Shown: positions 9,650-52,576 of the stretch, one piece after another | How positions within the stretch are numbered: position 1 is the first letter of the stretch | Layout: the number at the start of each line of letters is the position of its first letter | Virus record (IMG/VR): IMGVR_UViG_3300047483_000174 | Location: 49,051 to 113,050 of that record | Origin: a virus | Length of the DNA stretch: 64,000 bases | Strand: one strand, 5' to 3' | The notes under the pieces: generated by a model | What the model was told of the DNA's origin: nothing | The model's database searches: none | Seen by the model: only the letters and a program-made list of their open reading frames with translations | Translations under genes and position numbers: made by a program

Positions 9650-11974
9650 TTACTCCATTGAATGAACGGCGTCTGCTAGTGATAGGAACAATTCATCTGG
9701 TTCGCCAGATAGTGTTGCTCCGTTGCGATACAACCCATATTCACCAGTTTGTGTTTCAATGACCTCAAACTCTTTGCCATCTGGGGTTTCTACCTCAAAA
9801 CGAAGGCCACCTTCGCCACCAGCAATTTTTGAAACATAGATTGAGTATCCTTCTTTACGAAGGTCACTTACATATGATTGATAGTCTGTGTGTTCGCCAA
9901 GAGGATGTTTGTCACCCTGTTCGGCGTCAACAATATGACCATCCTTTAGGGTTACTTCCATCCAACCATTTGGCGAAATGTATTTCAATGGTTTCCAAGT
10001 AGAACGTCTTCCTTTTACAGTGCCATCTTCTACTCTGCCAATCAACTTATCTGTGATAGGTAGAGCACTTCTTGGTGGCAGAACACGCTTTCCATTGTGA
10101 AGTTTCTTACTCAACAAGTCTTTCAATATTTCGTCGGCATGTTGAAGAACAACCTGTTTTGCTTCTTCCGCAGAAGTTGCCAATACTGGATATGGACGTG
10201 GAGACCAATCCGCATACTTATTACGGTAATAGTTGTTCCAAATAGTGACTTCCCATACTTGTAGGTCGGAAGATGTGTCATCACCTTCTGCTTCGTTGGT
10301 TGCTTTTTTCTTTGAAGTTTTCATTGAATCTTTGGTAGATTTCATGATAGCCTTGCGAGAATCCATCTTTTCCTTGCGCTTGTTAGCAACATCCATCCAT
10401 AACGAATGACTATGGAAGTTTCTACGTGAAGCGTTCTTGATTCTATTTGCGTCTGTCACACCAGCCTGACGTTTTTTTACGTCATCCTTTGCGGCATCTA
10501 AATAACGATTCTTCATATCGTCCGAAATCTCATCGATCTGTTCTGCTTCATCAATACCAAATTCTTCAAAGACCGAATACTTTGACAATGACTCTTTTAG
10601 CATCTTGTCAAACTTCTTGTCAAGTGATTCTGCTACTTCGGCTGGCTTGTCAATCTTGGATAGTTTCAAGAAATAGGTAGCAAGTTGCATTTCTGGTTTG
10701 GTGATTGATTTTGGGTTTGTTTCTAACTTTTCTGACATATCATTCAAGAATAGAGAAATAACCGCAGCACGGTCGTGTCCTTTGTTCTTACGGCGATGGT
10801 CTTCCGTTGTATCAACATCGACACGTGATGCCAAATCTTGGAAGGTAGAAGCCATCTTTGCGTATTGAGATTGTGGAGTGTCTTTATACTGCTGTTTGAT
10901 TTTGTCAAAGTCGTATGACCCACCCGCAGAGAATGAAATTTTGTTTAGCTTCTCACCATTCTCATCTTTAGCAGAAATGATCTGCATGATGTTCTGCACC
11001 TGACCATCACGGTTGGAGCGATATTCTTCTTCGTTCACACGATGAACAAGTGGCAGAATGTCTTTCAAAGATTCTTCAAATGTTGATTTGGTGAACTTTG
11101 AAATGTATGAGTTGATTACGTCTTCTGTTATTTCTTCTTGCTGTTCGGTTTCATTCAACGCCAGAGATTCAACAAACGAAGTGTATCCACGGGAGGTTGA
11201 CAGTTTAGAAATGGTTTCTTTGATTTGACCAATCTTTTTCTTTACGTTGAAAACCACATCACGGTTTGCTTCGTTGATTAGACCTTGCTTAGAAACAATG
11301 CCCATAAACTCTTTTAGTTTGTATAGGTTTTCACTCATTTCAACAATAGCTGAACCAGTGGTATCCATAGGGTTTCCGCCAGATGAAACGTGGCGAGCCA
11401 TAGCGCGAGCACCAGACAAATGCTTGAATGGATATTTGAAACGTTCACCCGCATTGTTTTCGATGAAGATTGCAGAAATATTACGTGAACGAGACCCACG
11501 CTGTTCTTCATTGACTGGCGCACGGTGTCTTACGATTATTTTTGCATTTTCTAATGTCTGTCTACTTGTTCGGCTGGAACCCTCTAATGGGCTAATACTT
11601 TCAAATACATCGTCCACATTCTGCTCCTTATTTTGTTCTATTTTATAGCCATAATGACGAGGTTCAATACGCTTTCCAAAAGTTCTAATATCAAAGTCAA
11701 GAATGTTTCGTCTTGCCAACAATTTCATGTTTTTTGATATTTTGGATACGGTTGGGTCTTCAAGTGATACGTTTTCACCCATATGAAACTTTATTTCGCC
11801 AGTGCTGTCATCAAGAAAAACCATAATGTTTGGGTCTTCAACATAGAAATAACGTGCAGTAGTTGGGTCCGCGACACTCTTTCCGTTTTTATCATCAAAC
11901 ATTTGAACTTGAAGTCCATTCCCACGAATAAACTTCATTATCTTCTCTGCGATTACATTCATATTTACAGCCAT
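9650..11974 (-). CDS. Large hypothetical late protein, putative internal head protein
   Basis: 774-aa ORF with ATAAATA late-type promoter at 12007-12001; modular, with many xxE/NE junctions; no family recognised. Confidence 0.75.
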   Translation of the reverse strand: MAVNMNVIAEKIMKFIRGNGLQVQMFDDKNGKSVADPTTARYFYVEDPNIMVFLDDSTGEIKFHMGENVSLEDPTVSKISKNMKLLARRNILDFDIRTFGKRIEPRHYGYKIEQNKEQNVDDVFESISPLEGSSRTSRQTLENAKIIVRHRAPVNEEQRGSRSRNISAIFIENNAGERFKYPFKHLSGARAMARHVSSGGNPMDTTGSAIVEMSENLYKLKEFMGIVSKQGLINEANRDVVFNVKKKIGQIKETISKLSTSRGYTSFVESLALNETEQQEEITEDVINSYISKFTKSTFEESLKDILPLVHRVNEEEYRSNRDGQVQNIMQIISAKDENGEKLNKISFSAGGSYDFDKIKQQYKDTPQSQYAKMASTFQDLASRVDVDTTEDHRRKNKGHDRAAVISLFLNDMSEKLETNPKSITKPEMQLATYFLKLSKIDKPAEVAESLDKKFDKMLKESLSKYSVFEEFGIDEAEQIDEISDDMKNRYLDAAKDDVKKRQAGVTDANRIKNASRRNFHSHSLWMDVANKRKEKMDSRKAIMKSTKDSMKTSKKKATNEAEGDDTSSDLQVWEVTIWNNYYRNKYADWSPRPYPVLATSAEEAKQVVLQHADEILKDLLSKKLHNGKRVLPPRSALPITDKLIGRVEDGTVKGRRSTWKPLKYISPNGWMEVTLKDGHIVDAEQGDKHPLGEHTDYQSYVSDLRKEGYSIYVSKIAGGEGGLRFEVETPDGKEFEVIETQTGEYGLYRNGATLSGEPDELFLSLADAVHSME

Positions 11975-15315: not shown

Positions 15316-16221
15316 TCAATCGGAGAACCATTCATAGTTTATGTCGAAAACTTTATGATGTGTTTTATCATATTCCGTTGTTTCTTCTATGATTTTATTT
15401 AAATCTCCTGCATTCAAGTATGTAGCATTATTGTATTTTTTTCTCACAATAGTGCTTGGTGGTGCAATAATGTATTGCTCAATTGTGAAATAATCATCAT
15501 TGTCTTTTAGTTTGTTTGCCATAAATGAATTTGACGCAAATCTTATACAAGACTGGTGATAATCATTGATATGATGAATCATATCTTCTTTCCATATGGC
15601 ATATGAGTCCTCAATATAAGAAATAACATTTTCTTGAAAGTCATCTAAATACAATTTTTTCAAACAGTGGGAATTGGTTAAAAACATTTTGTCGTTCACA
15701 TGCACCATTGGCATTCTTGAAGATATAACATAGTTCATGTTAGTAACGAACATTCTACTATCAAATGCATTAGTCTCTACGAATCTTTGCAAAAACGAGT
15801 AATCTATATTATTTTTATAAGTTTGATATAATATGTCAGTTCTCATTACATAAATTGCATCGTATTCGGCGGGTAGCATGGATGCTATTTTATGAATTGA
15901 TATTATTTGATGAAATAACATCAAAACATTACTAGGATACAAAAAATCTATTTTCAATTTTTTATGTATTTGGTATGCAATTTTATGTTTATCTTCGTCT
16001 GTCACAAAATCATAAAATGACCTAAATCCATGAGAACTCACCAAGCGATCAATGACATCAATGTGTTCGTCTTCTATTGGGGCAGTAAAAAATCCAATAT
16101 CGATTGTTGTTGGGTCGGGAGACACAATATGATTAGTCATTTGCTTCATAACGACAATGTGATTTTCAATTGTTTGCGTTACATATCTAGGTTGTCCAAA
16201 ATACGCAAACAATATTTTCAT
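15316..16221 (-). CDS. Putative sugar-modifying / glycosyltransferase-like protein
   Basis: N-terminal ILFAYFGQPR and YDAIYVMRTD motifs recall phage GT-A-like proteins with xxxxxSGQPR and R-x-D motifs; assignment by recall only. Confidence 0.45.
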   Translation of the reverse strand: MKILFAYFGQPRYVTQTIENHIVVMKQMTNHIVSPDPTTIDIGFFTAPIEDEHIDVIDRLVSSHGFRSFYDFVTDEDKHKIAYQIHKKLKIDFLYPSNVLMLFHQIISIHKIASMLPAEYDAIYVMRTDILYQTYKNNIDYSFLQRFVETNAFDSRMFVTNMNYVISSRMPMVHVNDKMFLTNSHCLKKLYLDDFQENVISYIEDSYAIWKEDMIHHINDYHQSCIRFASNSFMANKLKDNDDYFTIEQYIIAPPSTIVRKKYNNATYLNAGDLNKIIEETTEYDKTHHKVFDINYEWFSD

Positions 16222-16466
16222 GTTTTTCCCCTTGGTTGAAGAATGATTTTCTTTTCCAAATCTGCGACACGCTTCGATAGGTCGGATAGTTCCTTATCTT
16301 GTGTGGTATCTTCTTCCTCGCCATGCATCGATGAACGCTGGACAAACTTCAAAATAGCAGCCAAATCGTTTGGTGCTTGAGGGTAATGATTTCTAACTTT
16401 GCTTAGTAGACGAGTGGTTTCTGGGTCAAACGGCTCATCAAAAACATCGTCATTTACTTCAGAGTT
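16218..16466 (-). CDS. Start-less 82-codon frame (NSEVNDDVFDEPFDPETT...LQPRGKT*), -1 extension of the 491-aa gene
   Basis: Open in the -1 frame from the A9 run at 16473-16465 to a TGA overlapping the next ATG (ATGA at 16221-16218). Confidence 0.7.
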   Translation of the reverse strand, partial: NSEVNDDVFDEPFDPETTRLLSKVRNHYPQAPNDLAAILKFVQRSSMHGEEEDTTQDKELSDLSKRVADLEKKIILQPRGKT

Positions 16467-17929
16467 TTTTTTTGAGTTGATTCAGTCTTGTAGTATCTTG
16501 ACTTGAAACCAGCTTTATCATACCCAGGCCATGTTTTTCCTGGGTTTTCTTTTTTCCACTTATCTTTGAATTGACGCTGTTCAATATATTCACGGTCTGA
16601 TTGTTCAGCACCAGCCGCACGATGAATTGCATCTCTTGGACCAAGTAGTGGAGCCTCATTCATTGGCGCTTCTGCTTTTTGAACTTTTGTGATATGAAAT
16701 TGCTTTGTCCCACCGTATGAGTCTGGACCAAGATATTCACCAACATCAACCATACTTCCAGTAAAGCCAAACACACGATACAACTTGCCGTTGTTGGTTA
16801 CGAAATCACCTTTTTTGAGTCCACGAGAAACTCGATCCAACTTGTTTGACGCACGTGCCACCCCAGCATAACGGTTGTCTACTTTATTCAGTGGTAGATT
16901 TCTATGACCTCTTGCATCAGATGCTTTGTCAATGTAATTAGTCATAGTCTCTGGTGATAGTTCATCCAGTTGTGATTCTTCATTCGTTGGTTTTGATTTG
17001 GACCATACACCTGTGTTTCTAAGACGTGAGGTGCTTCCATATTCGACTCTTCCGTTGTCGGAAACAGTAAATAATACGCCATTCAATACATATGCTTCTC
17101 TTGGTTTAGAAGAACCGTACCAATCTTTGACGCCGCCAATGTTTTTTGTTTTTGGGTAGTTCTTTAGCCAGTCAATAAACGAATTGACATTATTTCTGGT
17201 TTCAGAGTCGCCCCAATACGAAACGATTTTTCCTGGGTCACGATATCGTGAACCATCTCCACGAGTCCAACTTCCTAAGCCTGGAGGATTGTAATCAACC
17301 CAATTTTTACGCTCTACATTGGAATTGTAAGCGTTGACAATTTGAGATATCTTACTAACCTTACGGGCTTCGTCTATTTTTTCACTTTTTTTTTGAGCGG
17401 ATTCGTTCTTTTGAACAGCCTTGGCAATCTTATGTGCTTTTTTTATGGTTGACTTTTTGAGTGGTGGTTCGTCACCAGCCTCTTTTTTGGCAGCAGCCAT
17501 GCCAACGGCATATGCGTTCTTTGCTTCTTCTAGCTTACTGAACTCTGCAAGTAGAGATTCATAGATATCATCTTCATCTGATGAATACATAAGTGGGTTG
17601 TCACCACGTGACGGCTGAACAAACTTCTTTTGACGTGAAATACTGTCGGCAGTTTTCTTTGAGAAATCATCCAAGTCCAAGTCCTGTGGACCAGTTGGTT
17701 CATACTCAGCTTCTTCAACTGAATCTACGATCTCTACCGTGCCGCCGCATCCGCAATCAGATTCTGGCTCTGCTTGTGGCTGTGGTTGAGTAGCTTGTGC
17801 TTGTGCCAATCCAGCAAGTGTCATTAGACGAACAATCTCATCTGGGTGCTTTGTGCTCACATTGGTTGTGGTTAGTGACTTGCCGTTGTCGTCGGTCACG
17901 GTTAGGTTATAATGCTTATCGCCGTTCAT
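16454..17929 (-). CDS. Modular hypothetical late protein, putative internal head protein, containing two A9 slippage sites
   Basis: 491-aa ORF, ATGA-coupled to the upstream gene; repeated (L/I/N)xE junctions and a DELS...YIDKA module. Confidence 0.75.
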   Translation of the reverse strand: MNGDKHYNLTVTDDNGKSLTTTNVSTKHPDEIVRLMTLAGLAQAQATQPQPQAEPESDCGCGGTVEIVDSVEEAEYEPTGPQDLDLDDFSKKTADSISRQKKFVQPSRGDNPLMYSSDEDDIYESLLAEFSKLEEAKNAYAVGMAAAKKEAGDEPPLKKSTIKKAHKIAKAVQKNESAQKKSEKIDEARKVSKISQIVNAYNSNVERKNWVDYNPPGLGSWTRGDGSRYRDPGKIVSYWGDSETRNNVNSFIDWLKNYPKTKNIGGVKDWYGSSKPREAYVLNGVLFTVSDNGRVEYGSTSRLRNTGVWSKSKPTNEESQLDELSPETMTNYIDKASDARGHRNLPLNKVDNRYAGVARASNKLDRVSRGLKKGDFVTNNGKLYRVFGFTGSMVDVGEYLGPDSYGGTKQFHITKVQKAEAPMNEAPLLGPRDAIHRAAGAEQSDREYIEQRQFKDKWKKENPGKTWPGYDKAGFKSRYYKTESTQKKTLK

Positions 17930-18498
17930 TTTTTCTTCTCCCCAGAAATAACAGATTTACTACTGCCTTCTTCAGTTGACATTTGTGGTTGTGCTTTGTC
18001 TTTTGGTGGTTTTACACTCAATGCATTTACGACTTCAACAGTGTTTCTTTTTGATAGAGATTTTAGGAATTTTGTTACAAACTCACGGCCATAGTTCTCT
18101 CCATTATCCGACTTATCATCGTATGGAGTATCAAGCAACGCTGGCTTGTCTTCTTTCACTTCAATTTCTTCTTGTGGAGACCATCCCTCTGGGTGTATAA
18201 GAATGTGAGTGATATTCATAGGTATCAAATCGGATAGTTGCTGTCTCAAAATATCGGCAGCAATTGGATATCCAGTTGTGATATCAATCTTTGAAACTTC
18301 TACGTTTTCAACTTCCTTGAAGAAAAGTGGGTTCTTTGAAATAGGTGTCACCGACACACTTGACATTGTTCGTAGGTCATATTTTCCCAAAAATCTTTCA
18401 ATGCGGTCAACGTCATGTTCATCCAACTTACACGCAAAACGCAGTGTAAACTTGTATTCCTTAGCGGACTCTGCCAGAAATTGCTCAAATTTTTTCAT
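17926..18498 (-). CDS. Hypothetical late protein (MKKFEQFLAES...)
   Basis: 190 aa, GGAG RBS, late promoter ATAAATA 18532-18526. Confidence 0.75.
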   Translation of the reverse strand: MKKFEQFLAESAKEYKFTLRFACKLDEHDVDRIERFLGKYDLRTMSSVSVTPISKNPLFFKEVENVEVSKIDITTGYPIAADILRQQLSDLIPMNITHILIHPEGWSPQEEIEVKEDKPALLDTPYDDKSDNGENYGREFVTKFLKSLSKRNTVEVVNALSVKPPKDKAQPQMSTEEGSSKSVISGEKKK

Positions 18499-18524: not shown

Positions 18525-19034
18525 TTATTTATCATCTTGGAGATTTTTACTCGCAGATGCAATACGGCGCATCAATTCATTACGGTCAATCACAACTGAC
18601 CCTTCTGATTCTATCTCATTTGAATCTTTGACCTTGTTTTCTTCTTTTTCTATGGCATGGTCAAGTCTTGCTTTTTGCAACTGTAGATTGATCATACGTA
18701 GCTTTCGGTCAACTTTACTGTCTTTGGCTTCCATGGCAGTTTTCAACATAACAGCAGCGGTTTCCATAATCTTTGCGCCAGCATGAACTTCTACATTCAT
18801 GCCAAGAGTAACGAGTTCATCAAATGTTTTCATTGCCTTTTTGTGAATCTCGTCCATATCTCTGTCATGTTCATTCAAATCTCTTACGACTGGCAGTGCC
18901 GCATCAATCTTATCGGTTTCTGATAGAGTTTCAGTGAGTGCTTCAATCATATTTGTTGAGGTTTCAATGTCAACTACATCGTCTTCATCATCGGCTGATG
19001 GCAAGTTGAATACTTCTTCCAATTTTTTGGTCAT
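18525..19034 (-). CDS. Probable terminase small subunit (gp16-like)
   Basis: MTKKLEEVFNL start, helical core DEIHKKAMKTFDELVTLGMNV, C-terminal VVIDRNELM; adjacent to the head-completion nuclease. Confidence 0.6.
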   Translation of the reverse strand: MTKKLEEVFNLPSADDEDDVVDIETSTNMIEALTETLSETDKIDAALPVVRDLNEHDRDMDEIHKKAMKTFDELVTLGMNVEVHAGAKIMETAAVMLKTAMEAKDSKVDRKLRMINLQLQKARLDHAIEKEENKVKDSNEIESEGSVVIDRNELMRRIASASKNLQDDK

Positions 19035-19483
19035 TTTATTTTCCTTGGTTTTGGTTTCTTTGTATTCATATATATATCATTTTCATTTATCACTCTAAAC
19101 TTCATACCTCGTTTTGCCGCCCATTTTACCGCAGCGTCCCATTTTGCAAGATTGATTGCAGTTTGTGCTTGCTGTCCTTTTGTTCTTGCAAGCATAGGGT
19201 CTGATTGGTTGGCGGGTTTGATTTCTATAAGTTCTGCATGTTTCTTTTTGTTCTTGTCCATATAAACAACTATGAAATCTGGAATGTATGTAGACATCTT
19301 CCCCGTAAGAGGATGAGTATAATTTATTGACACGGGTTCAGATGCCCACGAAATTATGTTTGGGTTGTTGTCACAAAACTGCATAAAGGTCAACTCCCAT
19401 CCACTTCGGTATGTAGGAGTTCCAACCCCGGCATATTTACTCTCATTGATTACAGTATATTTGCCTTGGGTGTATTTGCTCAT
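19031..19483 (-). CDS. gp4: Head completion nuclease, T4 gp4-like (TnsA-like PD-(D/E)xK)
   Basis: YRSGWE..FM..CD.NP.I..WASE, YIPDF, IEIKP motifs. Confidence 0.88.
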   Translation of the reverse strand: MSKYTQGKYTVINESKYAGVGTPTYRSGWELTFMQFCDNNPNIISWASEPVSINYTHPLTGKMSTYIPDFIVVYMDKNKKKHAELIEIKPANQSDPMLARTKGQQAQTAINLAKWDAAVKWAAKRGMKFRVINENDIYMNTKKPKPRKIK

Positions 19484-51946: not shown

Positions 51947-52576
51947 TTAAAGTTTCAGTTCACGAATGAACTTTACTATTTGTTCTGACAAATACTTTTG
52001 CGCAGTCTTGTCATGTTGAACATCATGTGCCAGTTGCCAAGTTTGATAACCGCCACGCATATTCATTAGCCCTTCATATATCGCTTTTGGATAAGCATTA
52101 GGAGCACTAGGTTGTGCAACAATGTCTACCGTAACGATTTCAAAATTGCTTACATTACCGTTACCATCAACTTCACCCGAACCACGAGATGAAACACCAA
52201 GTGTTGCGCCAGACTCAATCAATGTTCTGATAATGTTTCCCATTGGAGTGGGAACAATTTTTAGTTTTCCAAAACCATTTGGTCCGTCCATCCACATATT
52301 CTCAATAATGTGAGAAACGCGGTCAACGTTCACTGTTAGTTCTGGTGGATGGTCGCACTCTCCAAGAACTGGAAAACCTTCAGATATTTTTTGCTGAACG
52401 CTTTCCACTGCTCTTGAAATTTCGGAGACCGGATATACTCTTTGGTTGGCATTCTTCACGCCACCTTGCACAAAGATACCTTCCATGAACATCGTTTTAT
52501 GTCCATTTTCACCCTCGACAATACGTGACTTGACGTTTGCTTGGTTATGAGATAGTCTTTCTATAAGAATGGCCAT
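51947..52576 (-). CDS. gp21: Prohead protease (gp21-like)
   Basis: EGIFVQGGVKNANQRVYP, LGECDHP, LGVSSRGSG, DIVAQPSAPNA. Confidence 0.95.
   Translation of the reverse strand: MAILIERLSHNQANVKSRIVEGENGHKTMFMEGIFVQGGVKNANQRVYPVSEISRAVESVQQKISEGFPVLGECDHPPELTVNVDRVSHIIENMWMDGPNGFGKLKIVPTPMGNIIRTLIESGATLGVSSRGSGEVDGNGNVSNFEIVTVDIVAQPSAPNAYPKAIYEGLMNMRGGYQTWQLAHDVQHDKTAQKYLSEQIVKFIRELKL

Follow-up and report, generated by a model that had tools for sequence, protein, structure and literature searches.

Probable programmed −1 recoding at cassette joints of a jumbo-phage gene predicted to encode three nested proteins

Introduction

Phage structural genes are known to use −1 ribosomal frameshifts, as in the lambda G/GT tail chaperone and T7 10A/10B, and the phage G/GT tail chaperones and E. 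coli dnaX serve as models of the translational route. To our knowledge, homopolymer-run recoding is established in a few cellular genes, IS elements and RNA viruses and has rarely been reported for structural genes of dsDNA phages. Runs of nine A or T cause efficient slippage of bacterial RNA polymerase, for example in Thermus dnaX and Shigella spa13 (PMC5009743). In Thermus thermophilus dnaX, transcriptional slippage on nine A/T yields tau and gamma (Larsen et al. 2000, reviewed in PMC5009743), and in Shigella several slippage runs occur within a single operon, in the type III secretion genes spa13, mxiE, mxiA and spa33 (PMC5009743). Phage A-tracts can also change in the DNA itself: the A9 tract of T2 agt mutates at ~7e-4, and a wide occurrence of such tracts among phages has been proposed (PMC12633550).

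Here we describe a phage gene with two A9 runs, found in a 64,000-nt stretch of IMG/VR record IMGVR_UViG_3300047483_000174 (the window; its lineage is called WIN). An earlier note, made from the sequence alone, had read the runs as recoding sites that set the ratio of a common N-terminal module to optional C-terminal cargo; the comparative tests that we ran all favour this predicted model and support it at the level of sequence.

Two A9 runs in one gene

The features of the window on which the argument turns are as follows.

16454..17929, minus strand: modular carrier-plus-cargo protein P0001, frame-0 ORF of 491 aa (translation, alignment)
17386..17394, minus strand: candidate slip site 1, A9, at joint E-S-A-Q-K-K-S-E-K-I-D-E (invariant in eight lineages)
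17382..17384, minus strand: −1-frame TGA stop, one codon past site 1 (sequence; TGA or TAA in all relatives)
16465..16473, minus strand: candidate slip site 2, A9, at joint E-S-T-Q-K-K (sequence, assemblies)
16454..16456, minus strand: TAA, the frame-0 stop for the 491-aa product (sequence)
16218..16466, minus strand: −1-frame tail, 82 codons plus TGA (dN/dS, start scan, predicted fold)
15316..16221, minus strand: downstream 301-aa gene, function unassigned, its start overlapping the tail-frame stop
17926..18498, minus strand: upstream 190-aa gene with an ATGA overlap with the 491-aa gene (weak PHROG matches)
51947..52576, minus strand: T4-type prohead core serine protease (Peptidase_S77; PF03420 match)

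In alignment, the N-terminal ~135 aa of the 491-aa protein are highly conserved and are followed by modules bounded by [L/I/M]-x-E. At site 1, frame 0 reads CAA AAA AAA AGT GAA and stays open; with one added A the reading becomes AAG TGA and the product, of 182 aa, ends ESAQKKK, and one lost A gives QKKVKK-stop, the two shifted-frame stops lying 1 and 3 codons off. At site 2, frame 0 reads CAA AAA AAA ACT CTG AAG TAA and ends after T-L-K at 491 aa; one added A opens the 82 codons of the tail frame, giving a 570-aa product, and that frame ends in an ATGA (16221-16218) overlapping the ATG of the next gene. The two sites have an identical codon phase and an identical 19-nt context, and at both, in all loci, an A AAA AAA heptamer (CA-A AAA AAA) lies in zero-frame phase. 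The run coordinates, the phase, the opposite frame outcomes and the 182/491/570-aa lengths thus all stand as the earlier note had given them.

Without the tail frame, a 232-nt stretch would be the largest gap of the 18-kb gene block, and neither a terminator nor a promoter was found on the gene strand within it. Pfam and PHROGs searches with the 491-aa protein and with the tail returned no family, and the ESM Atlas was uninformative for both; the predicted fold of the tail is four helices at low confidence (pLDDT 63). The diagnostic peptide of the −1-frame tail begins NSEVNDDVFDEPFDPETTR. A record look-up of a 48-aa TTG-start ORF returned no entry, a module common to the 491-aa protein and a 774-aa neighbour was only marginal (E = 0.013), and the downstream 301-aa gene lies in a variable region, being found in only part of the relatives.

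Conservation among relatives

The runs proved to be conserved, at synonymous positions as well, in all relatives with the joint. The site 1 run is invariant in 8/8 lineages despite high synonymous divergence, and both shifted frames there stop within 1–3 codons in every lineage, including L003, in which TAA replaces TGA. Site 2 is conserved in six lineages; in five of them frame 0 ends within 1–3 codons and the −1 frame continues, either into an 82–84-aa tail (three lineages) or into a DUF6934-like module followed by the same tail (L004 and L007), while the sixth carries a ParB-like module in frame 0 at joint 2. Joint 2 and the tail are both missing from L002 and L006, so the extension is dispensable, and a more distant relative, L014, has neither joints nor runs, which limits the device to the WIN clade.

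Further afield, megablast of the region against cultured phages gave no match, and the sole tblastn match of the 491-aa protein was a 42-aa motif in cyanomyovirus genes. IMG/VR scans for relatives found none, and a metagenome scan added one locus. In every assembly, the tail and the start of the cargo domain are unannotated or mis-started.

Coding constraint on the out-of-frame extension

The tail evolves under purifying selection (dN/dS 0.03–0.25 at dS 0.5–2.2), and the signal holds in its first 35 codons (pS 0.31–0.70 versus pN 0.02–0.11). The −1-frame extension is under coding constraint from its first codon, with no start codon before codon 35 in WIN and L005, and the conservation of an out-of-frame extension that the earlier note had called for is borne out. 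The DUF6934-like module of L004 and L007 offers a second, unrelated case of optional cargo: its conserved N-terminus lies in the −1 frame and, lacking a start codon, begins directly at the run, and the module aligns from residue 1 with phrog_6387 and with homologues whose N-termini are their own. For one cargo module, the free-standing homologues open with short peptides ending L-T-E.

Two other ways of translating the tail were considered and rejected. An independent start in WIN and L005 is ruled out by codons 1–34, which hold no ATG, GTG, TTG, CTG or ATH, the first possible start being codon 35; in L003 and L007, a GTG at tail codon 8 is a candidate start. Reinitiation past the frame-0 stop is ruled out in that the sole nearby ATG is a frame-0 codon that begins an ORF of 16 codons.

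Compared with L003, L004 has a tail nearer to that of WIN, so the start-less arrangement could be younger than part of the purifying-selection signal.

Run lengths and their stability

The two A9 runs are the sole homopolymers of at least nine across the 137-kb phage contig. The A9 count by itself is in no excess over chance, the window holding two against 6.5 expected from dinucleotide shuffles; that is, long runs are depleted. The 19-nt context GAATCNNNTCAAAAAAAAA, whose duplication the earlier note had held against a sequencing error, is present twice and was duplicated in 0/100 shuffles; the duplication is real, but it is merely that of a repeated module joint and is not independent evidence of slippage.

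The window is a metagenome contig and some platforms are error-prone at homopolymers, and a miscall might have split one 570-aa gene; alternatively, the tail might be the dead remnant of a lost module. We consider both extremely unlikely because 13 assemblies from differing samples and pipelines agree and because the tail is under strong purifying selection. In L016, an independent assembly 99.3% identical to the window, both runs are A9. A sister strain has four assemblies (L003, L011, L012 and L013), each with A9 at site 2, and the pair that covers site 1 (L003 and L011) has A9 there. Overall, site 1 is A9 in 11/11 covering assemblies, and site 2 is A9 in the window, L016, L003, L011–13, L005, L008 and L010 and A10 in L004 and L007, with the −1 relation unchanged. 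Run-length polymorphism was sought among the 13 assemblies and none was found, run lengths being identical within lineages that are 98.3–99.3% identical, which is evidence against both error and switching in the DNA. Sequencing error, already doubted in the earlier note, and decay are thus largely ruled out by the comparison of assemblies and the constraint on the tail.

An alternative reading is that the runs are contingency loci: replication slippage would switch A9 to A10 or back in a minority of genomes, as a bet-hedge of fused and truncated genes, with no recoding of RNA or protein. The A9 tract of T2 agt and its mutation rate provide the precedent, but contingency loci should vary in length, with on and off states among close genomes, and here site 2 is off in 9/9 assemblies of the five −1-cargo lineages, including strains 0.7–1.7% apart, with no on allele among them. 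The constancy of site 1 is equally at odds with toggling, the A10 lineages retain the same −1 offset, and expression in ~0.1% of genomes would be unable to sustain the dN/dS of the tail. We regard this reading as improbable.

Probable mechanism of recoding

Taken together, the sequences point to programmed −1 recoding at cassette joints, with one gene probably giving three nested proteins of 182, 491 and 570 aa. Both runs are at least as long as the RNA:DNA hybrid (nine or more), being A9 at both sites and A10 at site 2 of L004 and L007, and in relatives a conserved run goes together with a constrained shifted frame; slippage by RNA polymerase seems a more likely mechanism than slippage by ribosomes.

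Recoding might instead be purely translational, with ribosomes slipping −1 on A AAA AAA with tRNA-Lys along an mRNA that is a faithful A9 copy. The in-phase X XXY YYZ heptamer typical of −1 ribosomal frameshifting is present at both sites, in the correct phase at all loci, the products would be the same as those of the extra-A route, and spontaneous −1 slippage on lysine A-runs is documented (PMC9307594, PMC4344849). However, RNA folding of the 80 nt 3′ of the run at six loci revealed no conserved hairpin or pseudoknot and no shared or significant structure (z-scores −2.0 to +0.07), and no upstream Shine-Dalgarno-like element was seen. The run is also 9–10 long when seven would suffice, nine fitting the hybrid length of RNA polymerase, and unstimulated shifting of ~1–2% is low for so constrained a tail. 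We therefore consider a purely ribosomal route unlikely, although less so than switching in the DNA.

Role of the first site

We infer that selection, rather than tolerance, lies behind the truncation at site 1. A competing view is that only site 2 is functional and that the A9 of site 1 is a passive copy of the joint, kept because cassettes are exchanged by recombination at the joint or because of codon bias, with the 182-aa product as tolerated waste. Both sites do copy one joint, modules are gained and lost exactly at joints, this AT-rich genome favours AAA and CAA, and the 182-aa product has no assigned function; we accordingly give this view appreciable weight while favouring selection. 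What tells against passivity is that a single synonymous A-to-G change would end the cost, yet the three A-ending codons are invariant in eight lineages. All three codons at each A-run site are all-A, whereas only 11/52 other invariant K/Q/E columns (~21%) are, and the immediate stops in both shifted frames in every lineage, together with a genome otherwise depleted in long runs, are also difficult to reconcile with a passive site.

Probable capsid packaging and putative processing

The prohead protease matches PF03420 at 89.7 bits (cut-off 27), and for the 190-aa gene PHROGs gave weak matches to families labelled virion structural protein and internal head protein. Module boundaries fall directly after [L/I/M]-x-E in 4/4 cases; overall, [LIMV]-x-E motifs show no enrichment (8 against 7 expected), and cleavage is putative. 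The product of the 491-aa gene is probably packed in the capsid, a reading advanced in the earlier note, because the T4-type protease, the [L/I/M]-x-E boundaries and the virion-like neighbours fit it, and the Peptidase_S77 protease is the likely candidate for cutting the modules apart.

Our best explanation, which we hold to be probable as a whole, is that the gene encodes a polyprotein packed in the head of a marine jumbo myovirus, in which a conserved N-terminal carrier precedes exchangeable cargo modules; within it, we infer polymerase slippage and the product ratios as well as capsid packaging and protease cleavage. The joints observed consist of an E-S-x-Q-K-K linker, the A-run and then an [L/I]-x-E site, which would serve the phage protease. 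The RNA:DNA hybrid of bacterial RNA polymerase is likewise nine long, which should leave a share of transcripts with an A added or dropped; unstimulated −1 slippage of ribosomes at A AAA AAA may contribute some product. Slippage at joint 1 would give messages that stop after 1–3 codons, for a carrier-only product of 182 aa. At joint 2, messages that did not slip would stop three codons on, at 491 aa, and those with one extra A would continue into the 82-aa tail, at 570 aa; sister phages would reach from this joint, in the −1 frame, the DUF6934-like module and then the same tail or, in frame 0, the ParB-like module.

More tentatively, and with less confidence than doubt, the joint (linker, A9 and protease site) might be a general plug-in adaptor for capsid cargo: a cassette recombined behind it in frame 0 or −1 would be dosed by polymerase slippage; the common N-terminal carrier would bring it into the prohead, and cleavage would then release it. 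If true, these jumbo phages could exchange injected proteins, possibly anti-defence ones, and adjust their dose with no need to evolve promoters, start sites or targeting signals anew.

Comparison with known systems

We found no description in the literature of recoding at the joints of internal, ejection or polyvalent proteins, and this case has two opposite-outcome sites in one gene, exactly at the joints of cassette exchange between sister phages. Gene callers miss homopolymer-run recoding, and the joint could provide a rule for spotting hidden cargo genes in jumbo-phage metagenomes. It would also link slippage-set stoichiometry, prohead-protease processing and the modular evolution of injected proteins, usually studied apart, and its short joints and clear diagnostic peptides make a clean system for tests.

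Like lambda G/GT and T7 10A/10B, this is a late structural gene with a −1-frame C-terminal extension on a fixed minority of products (here predicted); those genes have a 7-nt heptamer, one site and a fixed homologous extension, whereas here the run is 9–10 long, no stimulator was found in the 80 nt downstream at six loci, and the cargo varies between sister phages. As with T4 IPI-III and Alt, which carry capsid targeting sequences, the late gene lies beside head and packaging genes and a T4-type prohead protease is present, but there is no sequence homology to the T4 IPs and several cargo modules sit on one carrier. Module boundaries after x-x-E recall the giant-phage ejection proteins with long propeptides (SPN3US, phiKZ), and hypervariable cargo that includes a ParB-like domain is typical of polyvalent proteins (PMC5694885, PMC5512222).

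Frame-shifting A-runs inside phage accessory genes are also found in the T2 agt A9 and T4 rIIA A6 contingency loci (preprint PMC12633550); those switch in the DNA and both states occur, whereas here run length is fixed in all assemblies and selection on the shifted frame is constant. With Thermus dnaX the locus shares a run of exactly nine and, at site 1, slipped transcripts that would stop at once to leave a truncated product with a common N-terminus; dnaX, however, is a cellular replication gene with a single site and no extension, and the present case is a phage structural gene with two sites of opposite outcome. As in Shigella spa13, in which 25–30% of the product is extended, slippage at an A/T run would give a C-terminal extension, the end of the extension overlaps the start of the next gene (ATGA here), and one assembly system has multiple sites; the Shigella sites lie in separate genes and not at module joints, whereas here cassettes are exchanged at the joints themselves.

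Gene neighbourhood and modular architecture

The window comes from an IMG/VR viral contig with an estimated completeness of 37%, which implies a jumbo-sized phage genome. Its large terminase shares 56% identity with that of Pseudomonas phage PA5oct and 51-52% with that of Agrobacterium phage Atu_ph07, and a T4-type prohead protease is encoded (Peptidase_S77, 89.7 bits). The gene studied here (491 aa, minus strand, ATG at 17929, TAA stop at 16456-16454) lies in a tightly packed late block comprising a sheath gene, small unknown genes, a TnsA-like endonuclease, a 190-aa gene, the 491-aa gene, variable genes, a 572-aa gene and the terminase. The 190-aa gene upstream has weak matches to PHROG families annotated as virion structural protein and internal head protein. 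The TnsA-like gene, among the small late genes upstream, holds the same position in all relatives. Between the 491-aa gene and the conserved 572-aa gene is a hypervariable stretch (window 15316-16453; also in loci L002-L007 and L010), in which sister phages carry 0, 1 or 2 additional genes (77, 192 and 299-306 aa).

Features discussed in the text
19031-19483, minus strand: TnsA-like endonuclease N-terminal domain protein, 150 aa (PF08722, E = 4.6e-22)
17394-17386, minus strand: A9 run, site 1, within the 491-aa frame
16473-16465, minus strand: A9 run, site 2, within the 491-aa frame
L010:3766-4209 (and L008), frame 0: ParB-like nuclease-fold module with a DGHHR motif, preceded by D-L-N-E

A protein search over 5.8 billion sequences returned seven close relatives (331-585 aa); their contigs, one marine-metagenome locus and several independent assemblies gave a comparison set of 13 assemblies from 8 lineages. 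Protein alignment revealed a modular gene in which a near-invariant N-terminal region of ~135 aa is followed by modules that are either wholly present or wholly absent. In the window protein, each of the four module boundaries directly follows an [L/I/M]-x-E motif (KLEE, KIDE, QLDE and PMNE); across the protein, motifs of the [L/I/M/V]-x-E type are not enriched (8 observed versus 7 expected). Hundreds of marine phage proteins share this N-terminal region and continue into unrelated C-terminal sequences; two of the modules also occur behind another N-terminus.

Several further similarities were observed. Residues 135-176 (window 17402-17527) form a 42-aa motif (A-K-N-A-Y-A-V-G-M-A... K-K-A-H-K-I-A-K-A-V) that shows ~70% identity to a segment of a 591-aa hypothetical cyanomyovirus protein (for example, S-RIM8 gp114), whose gene has the small terminase gene on one side and that of a virion structural protein on the other. 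Residues 315-369 (module 4) have marginal similarity (E = 0.013), centred on Q-I/L-D-E-I/L-S...Y-x-D-x-A, to a 774-aa virion-structural-like protein (window 9650-11974, minus strand), which also has a G-E-G-G-L-R-F-E-V-E-T-P stretch in common with protein P0013. One 90%-identity cluster of P0041, representing distant relatives with the same N-terminal region, contains members of 390 aa and several of 284 aa, which may reflect another module indel or break.

Two A9 sites with opposite outcomes

Re-reading of frames and stops confirmed the observation in the earlier note of two matching A9 sites with opposite outcomes and predicted nested products of 182, 491 and 570 aa. In both cases the first A of the run is position 2 of a CAA codon, and GAA TCn nnT C comes before it. 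Frame 0 stays open at site 1 (Q-K-K-S-E-K-I-D-E), one additional A leads to AAG TGA and a 182-aa product, and loss of one A leads to Q-K-K-V-K-K-stop. Frame 0 at site 2 terminates as Q-K-K-T-L-K-stop, one additional A opens 82 further codons (570 aa in total) whose closing TGA shares bases with the start ATG of the following gene, and one A fewer gives a stop after one codon.

A9 runs are not more frequent than expected by chance; the window has 2 compared with 6.5 expected from shuffles, so long runs are depleted. Run counts in the contig drop steeply (T6, 118; T7, 25; T8, 2), and the two A9 runs, the only homopolymers of at least nine in the entire 137 kb, are conspicuous against this depletion of long A/T runs. 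Double occurrence of the 19-nt context common to both sites was found in 0 of 100 shuffles.

Conservation of both sites

The sequence CAA AAA AAA AGT was present at site 1 in all 8 lineages, with differing flanking codons (TCC/TCT; GCT/ACT/TCT/GTT; GAA/AAA; AAA/AAG; ATA/TTA). One additional A gives a stop after one codon in 8/8 lineages (TGA, or TAA in L003), and one A fewer gives a stop after three codons in all of them. As a synonymous baseline, we took 52 further alignment columns in which K, Q or E is invariant, of which only 11 kept a third-position A in every lineage; three all-A columns in succession at each of two sites are thus unlikely under drift (~1% per site, a rough estimate on the same tree). 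The 182-aa product would be the N-terminal carrier alone, and this synonymous conservation, together with the tidy stops in both shifted frames, leads us to favour its use over mere tolerance.

The second joint (E-S-x-Q-K-K plus the run) occurs in 6 lineages with three outcomes. The window, L003 and L005 combine an A9 run with a frame 0 that terminates as T-L-K-stop and a -1 frame that contains a homologous 82-84-aa tail. In L004 and L007, the run is A10 and frame 0 terminates as N-stop; the -1 frame continues through K-L-N-E into a DUF6934-like module (~145 aa) and then the same tail, in frame. In L008 and L010, the run is A9, the -1 frame stops immediately, and frame 0 runs via D-L-N-E into the ParB-like module (phrog_2859, E = 1.9e-27); domains of this type are characteristic of phage polyvalent proteins. 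The protein ends before joint 2 in L002 and L006. The window arrangement equals that of L004 without the DUF6934-like module, the deletion being in frame in the -1 frame and changing the joint from S-K-K-K-L-N-E to S-K-K-N-S-E-V and A10 to A9.

Coding evidence for the -1 frame

Tail dN/dS values were 0.03-0.25 at dS of 0.5-2.2 (pairwise Nei-Gojobori), and over tail codons 1-35, pS was 0.31-0.70 versus pN of 0.02-0.11. Before codon 35, ATG, GTG, TTG, CTG and ATH are all absent from the tails of the window and L005; L003 and L007 have a GTG at tail codon 8. Gene callers place the cargo-gene start in L004 and L007 at an ATG 34 codons past the run, and those 34 codons align to free-standing homologues with invariant L, E, L, F, D, P, Y, P and Y. 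This cargo aligns to phrog_6387 from residue one, and its Pfam match also implies a domain start upstream of the called ATG. Tail constraint and cargo alignments together indicate that two unrelated cargoes have their first codon precisely at the run, in the -1 frame, and lack a start codon. The 232 nt from the frame-0 stop to the next gene would, as a gap, be the largest in the 18-kb block, and they contain neither a terminator nor a promoter on the gene strand. The tail, missing from three lineages, is predicted to form four helices with low confidence (pLDDT 63); a search for recognisable relatives found none.

Assembly error is addressed by independent data. L016, which derives from a different sequencing run, aligns to the window without gaps at 99.3% identity and has A9 at both sites. 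L003 and L011-L013 (98.3-98.8% identical to L003) represent four samples; all four have A9 at site 2, the two that cover site 1 (L003 and L011) have A9 there as well, and no assembly contained an in-frame fused allele. An alternative interpretation is that the A-runs are contingency loci switching at the DNA level, such as the A9 tract of T2 agt, which mutate at ~7e-4 and are found in both states (PMC12633550). Here, however, run length is fixed and the shifted frame is under strong constraint, which argues against DNA-level switching. With the runs and the out-of-frame extension conserved in relatives, the comparative evidence supports the interpretation in the earlier note, in which slippage at the two sites would yield the nested products.

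Possible mechanism of the proposed recoding

In vivo, runs of nine A or T, which match the length of the RNA:DNA hybrid, are efficient slippage sites for bacterial RNA polymerase; by this route Thermus dnaX gives ~50% full-length product and Shigella spa13 gives 25-30% extended product (PMC5009743). The runs here, of 9 or 10, are longer than a ribosomal heptamer requires; no downstream structure common to six loci was found (folding z-scores, -2.0 to +0.07) and no SD-like element was seen upstream of the runs. We caution that an A AAA AAA heptamer lies in phase at each site, so that -1 slippage by the ribosome may play a part or may even be the main route. If recoding occurs, transcriptional slippage is nevertheless, in our judgement, considerably the more probable of the two.

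Comparison with known head cargo systems

In T4, cleavage by gp21 follows L/I-x-E. This protease cuts propeptides off head proteins, and T4 internal proteins bear short targeting peptides (PMC5694885). The free-standing homologues of the L004 cargo (P0128 and P0129) have N-terminal peptides of their own, 17-19 aa long, which end in L-T-E immediately ahead of the conserved L-F-D-K-P-Y-P-Y and look like T4-style capsid targeting propeptides. From the protease gene, boundary motifs, neighbouring genes and precedents in T4 and giant phages (PMC5694885, PMC5512222), we infer head packaging and cleavage at the joints. No description of recoding at joints of phage internal or ejection proteins was found in the literature. 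A9 slippage, nested products and protease-cut head cargo are each already known singly; their combination, the presence of two opposite-outcome sites within one gene, and the use of one joint for frame-0 or frame -1 cargo among sister phages appear to be new.
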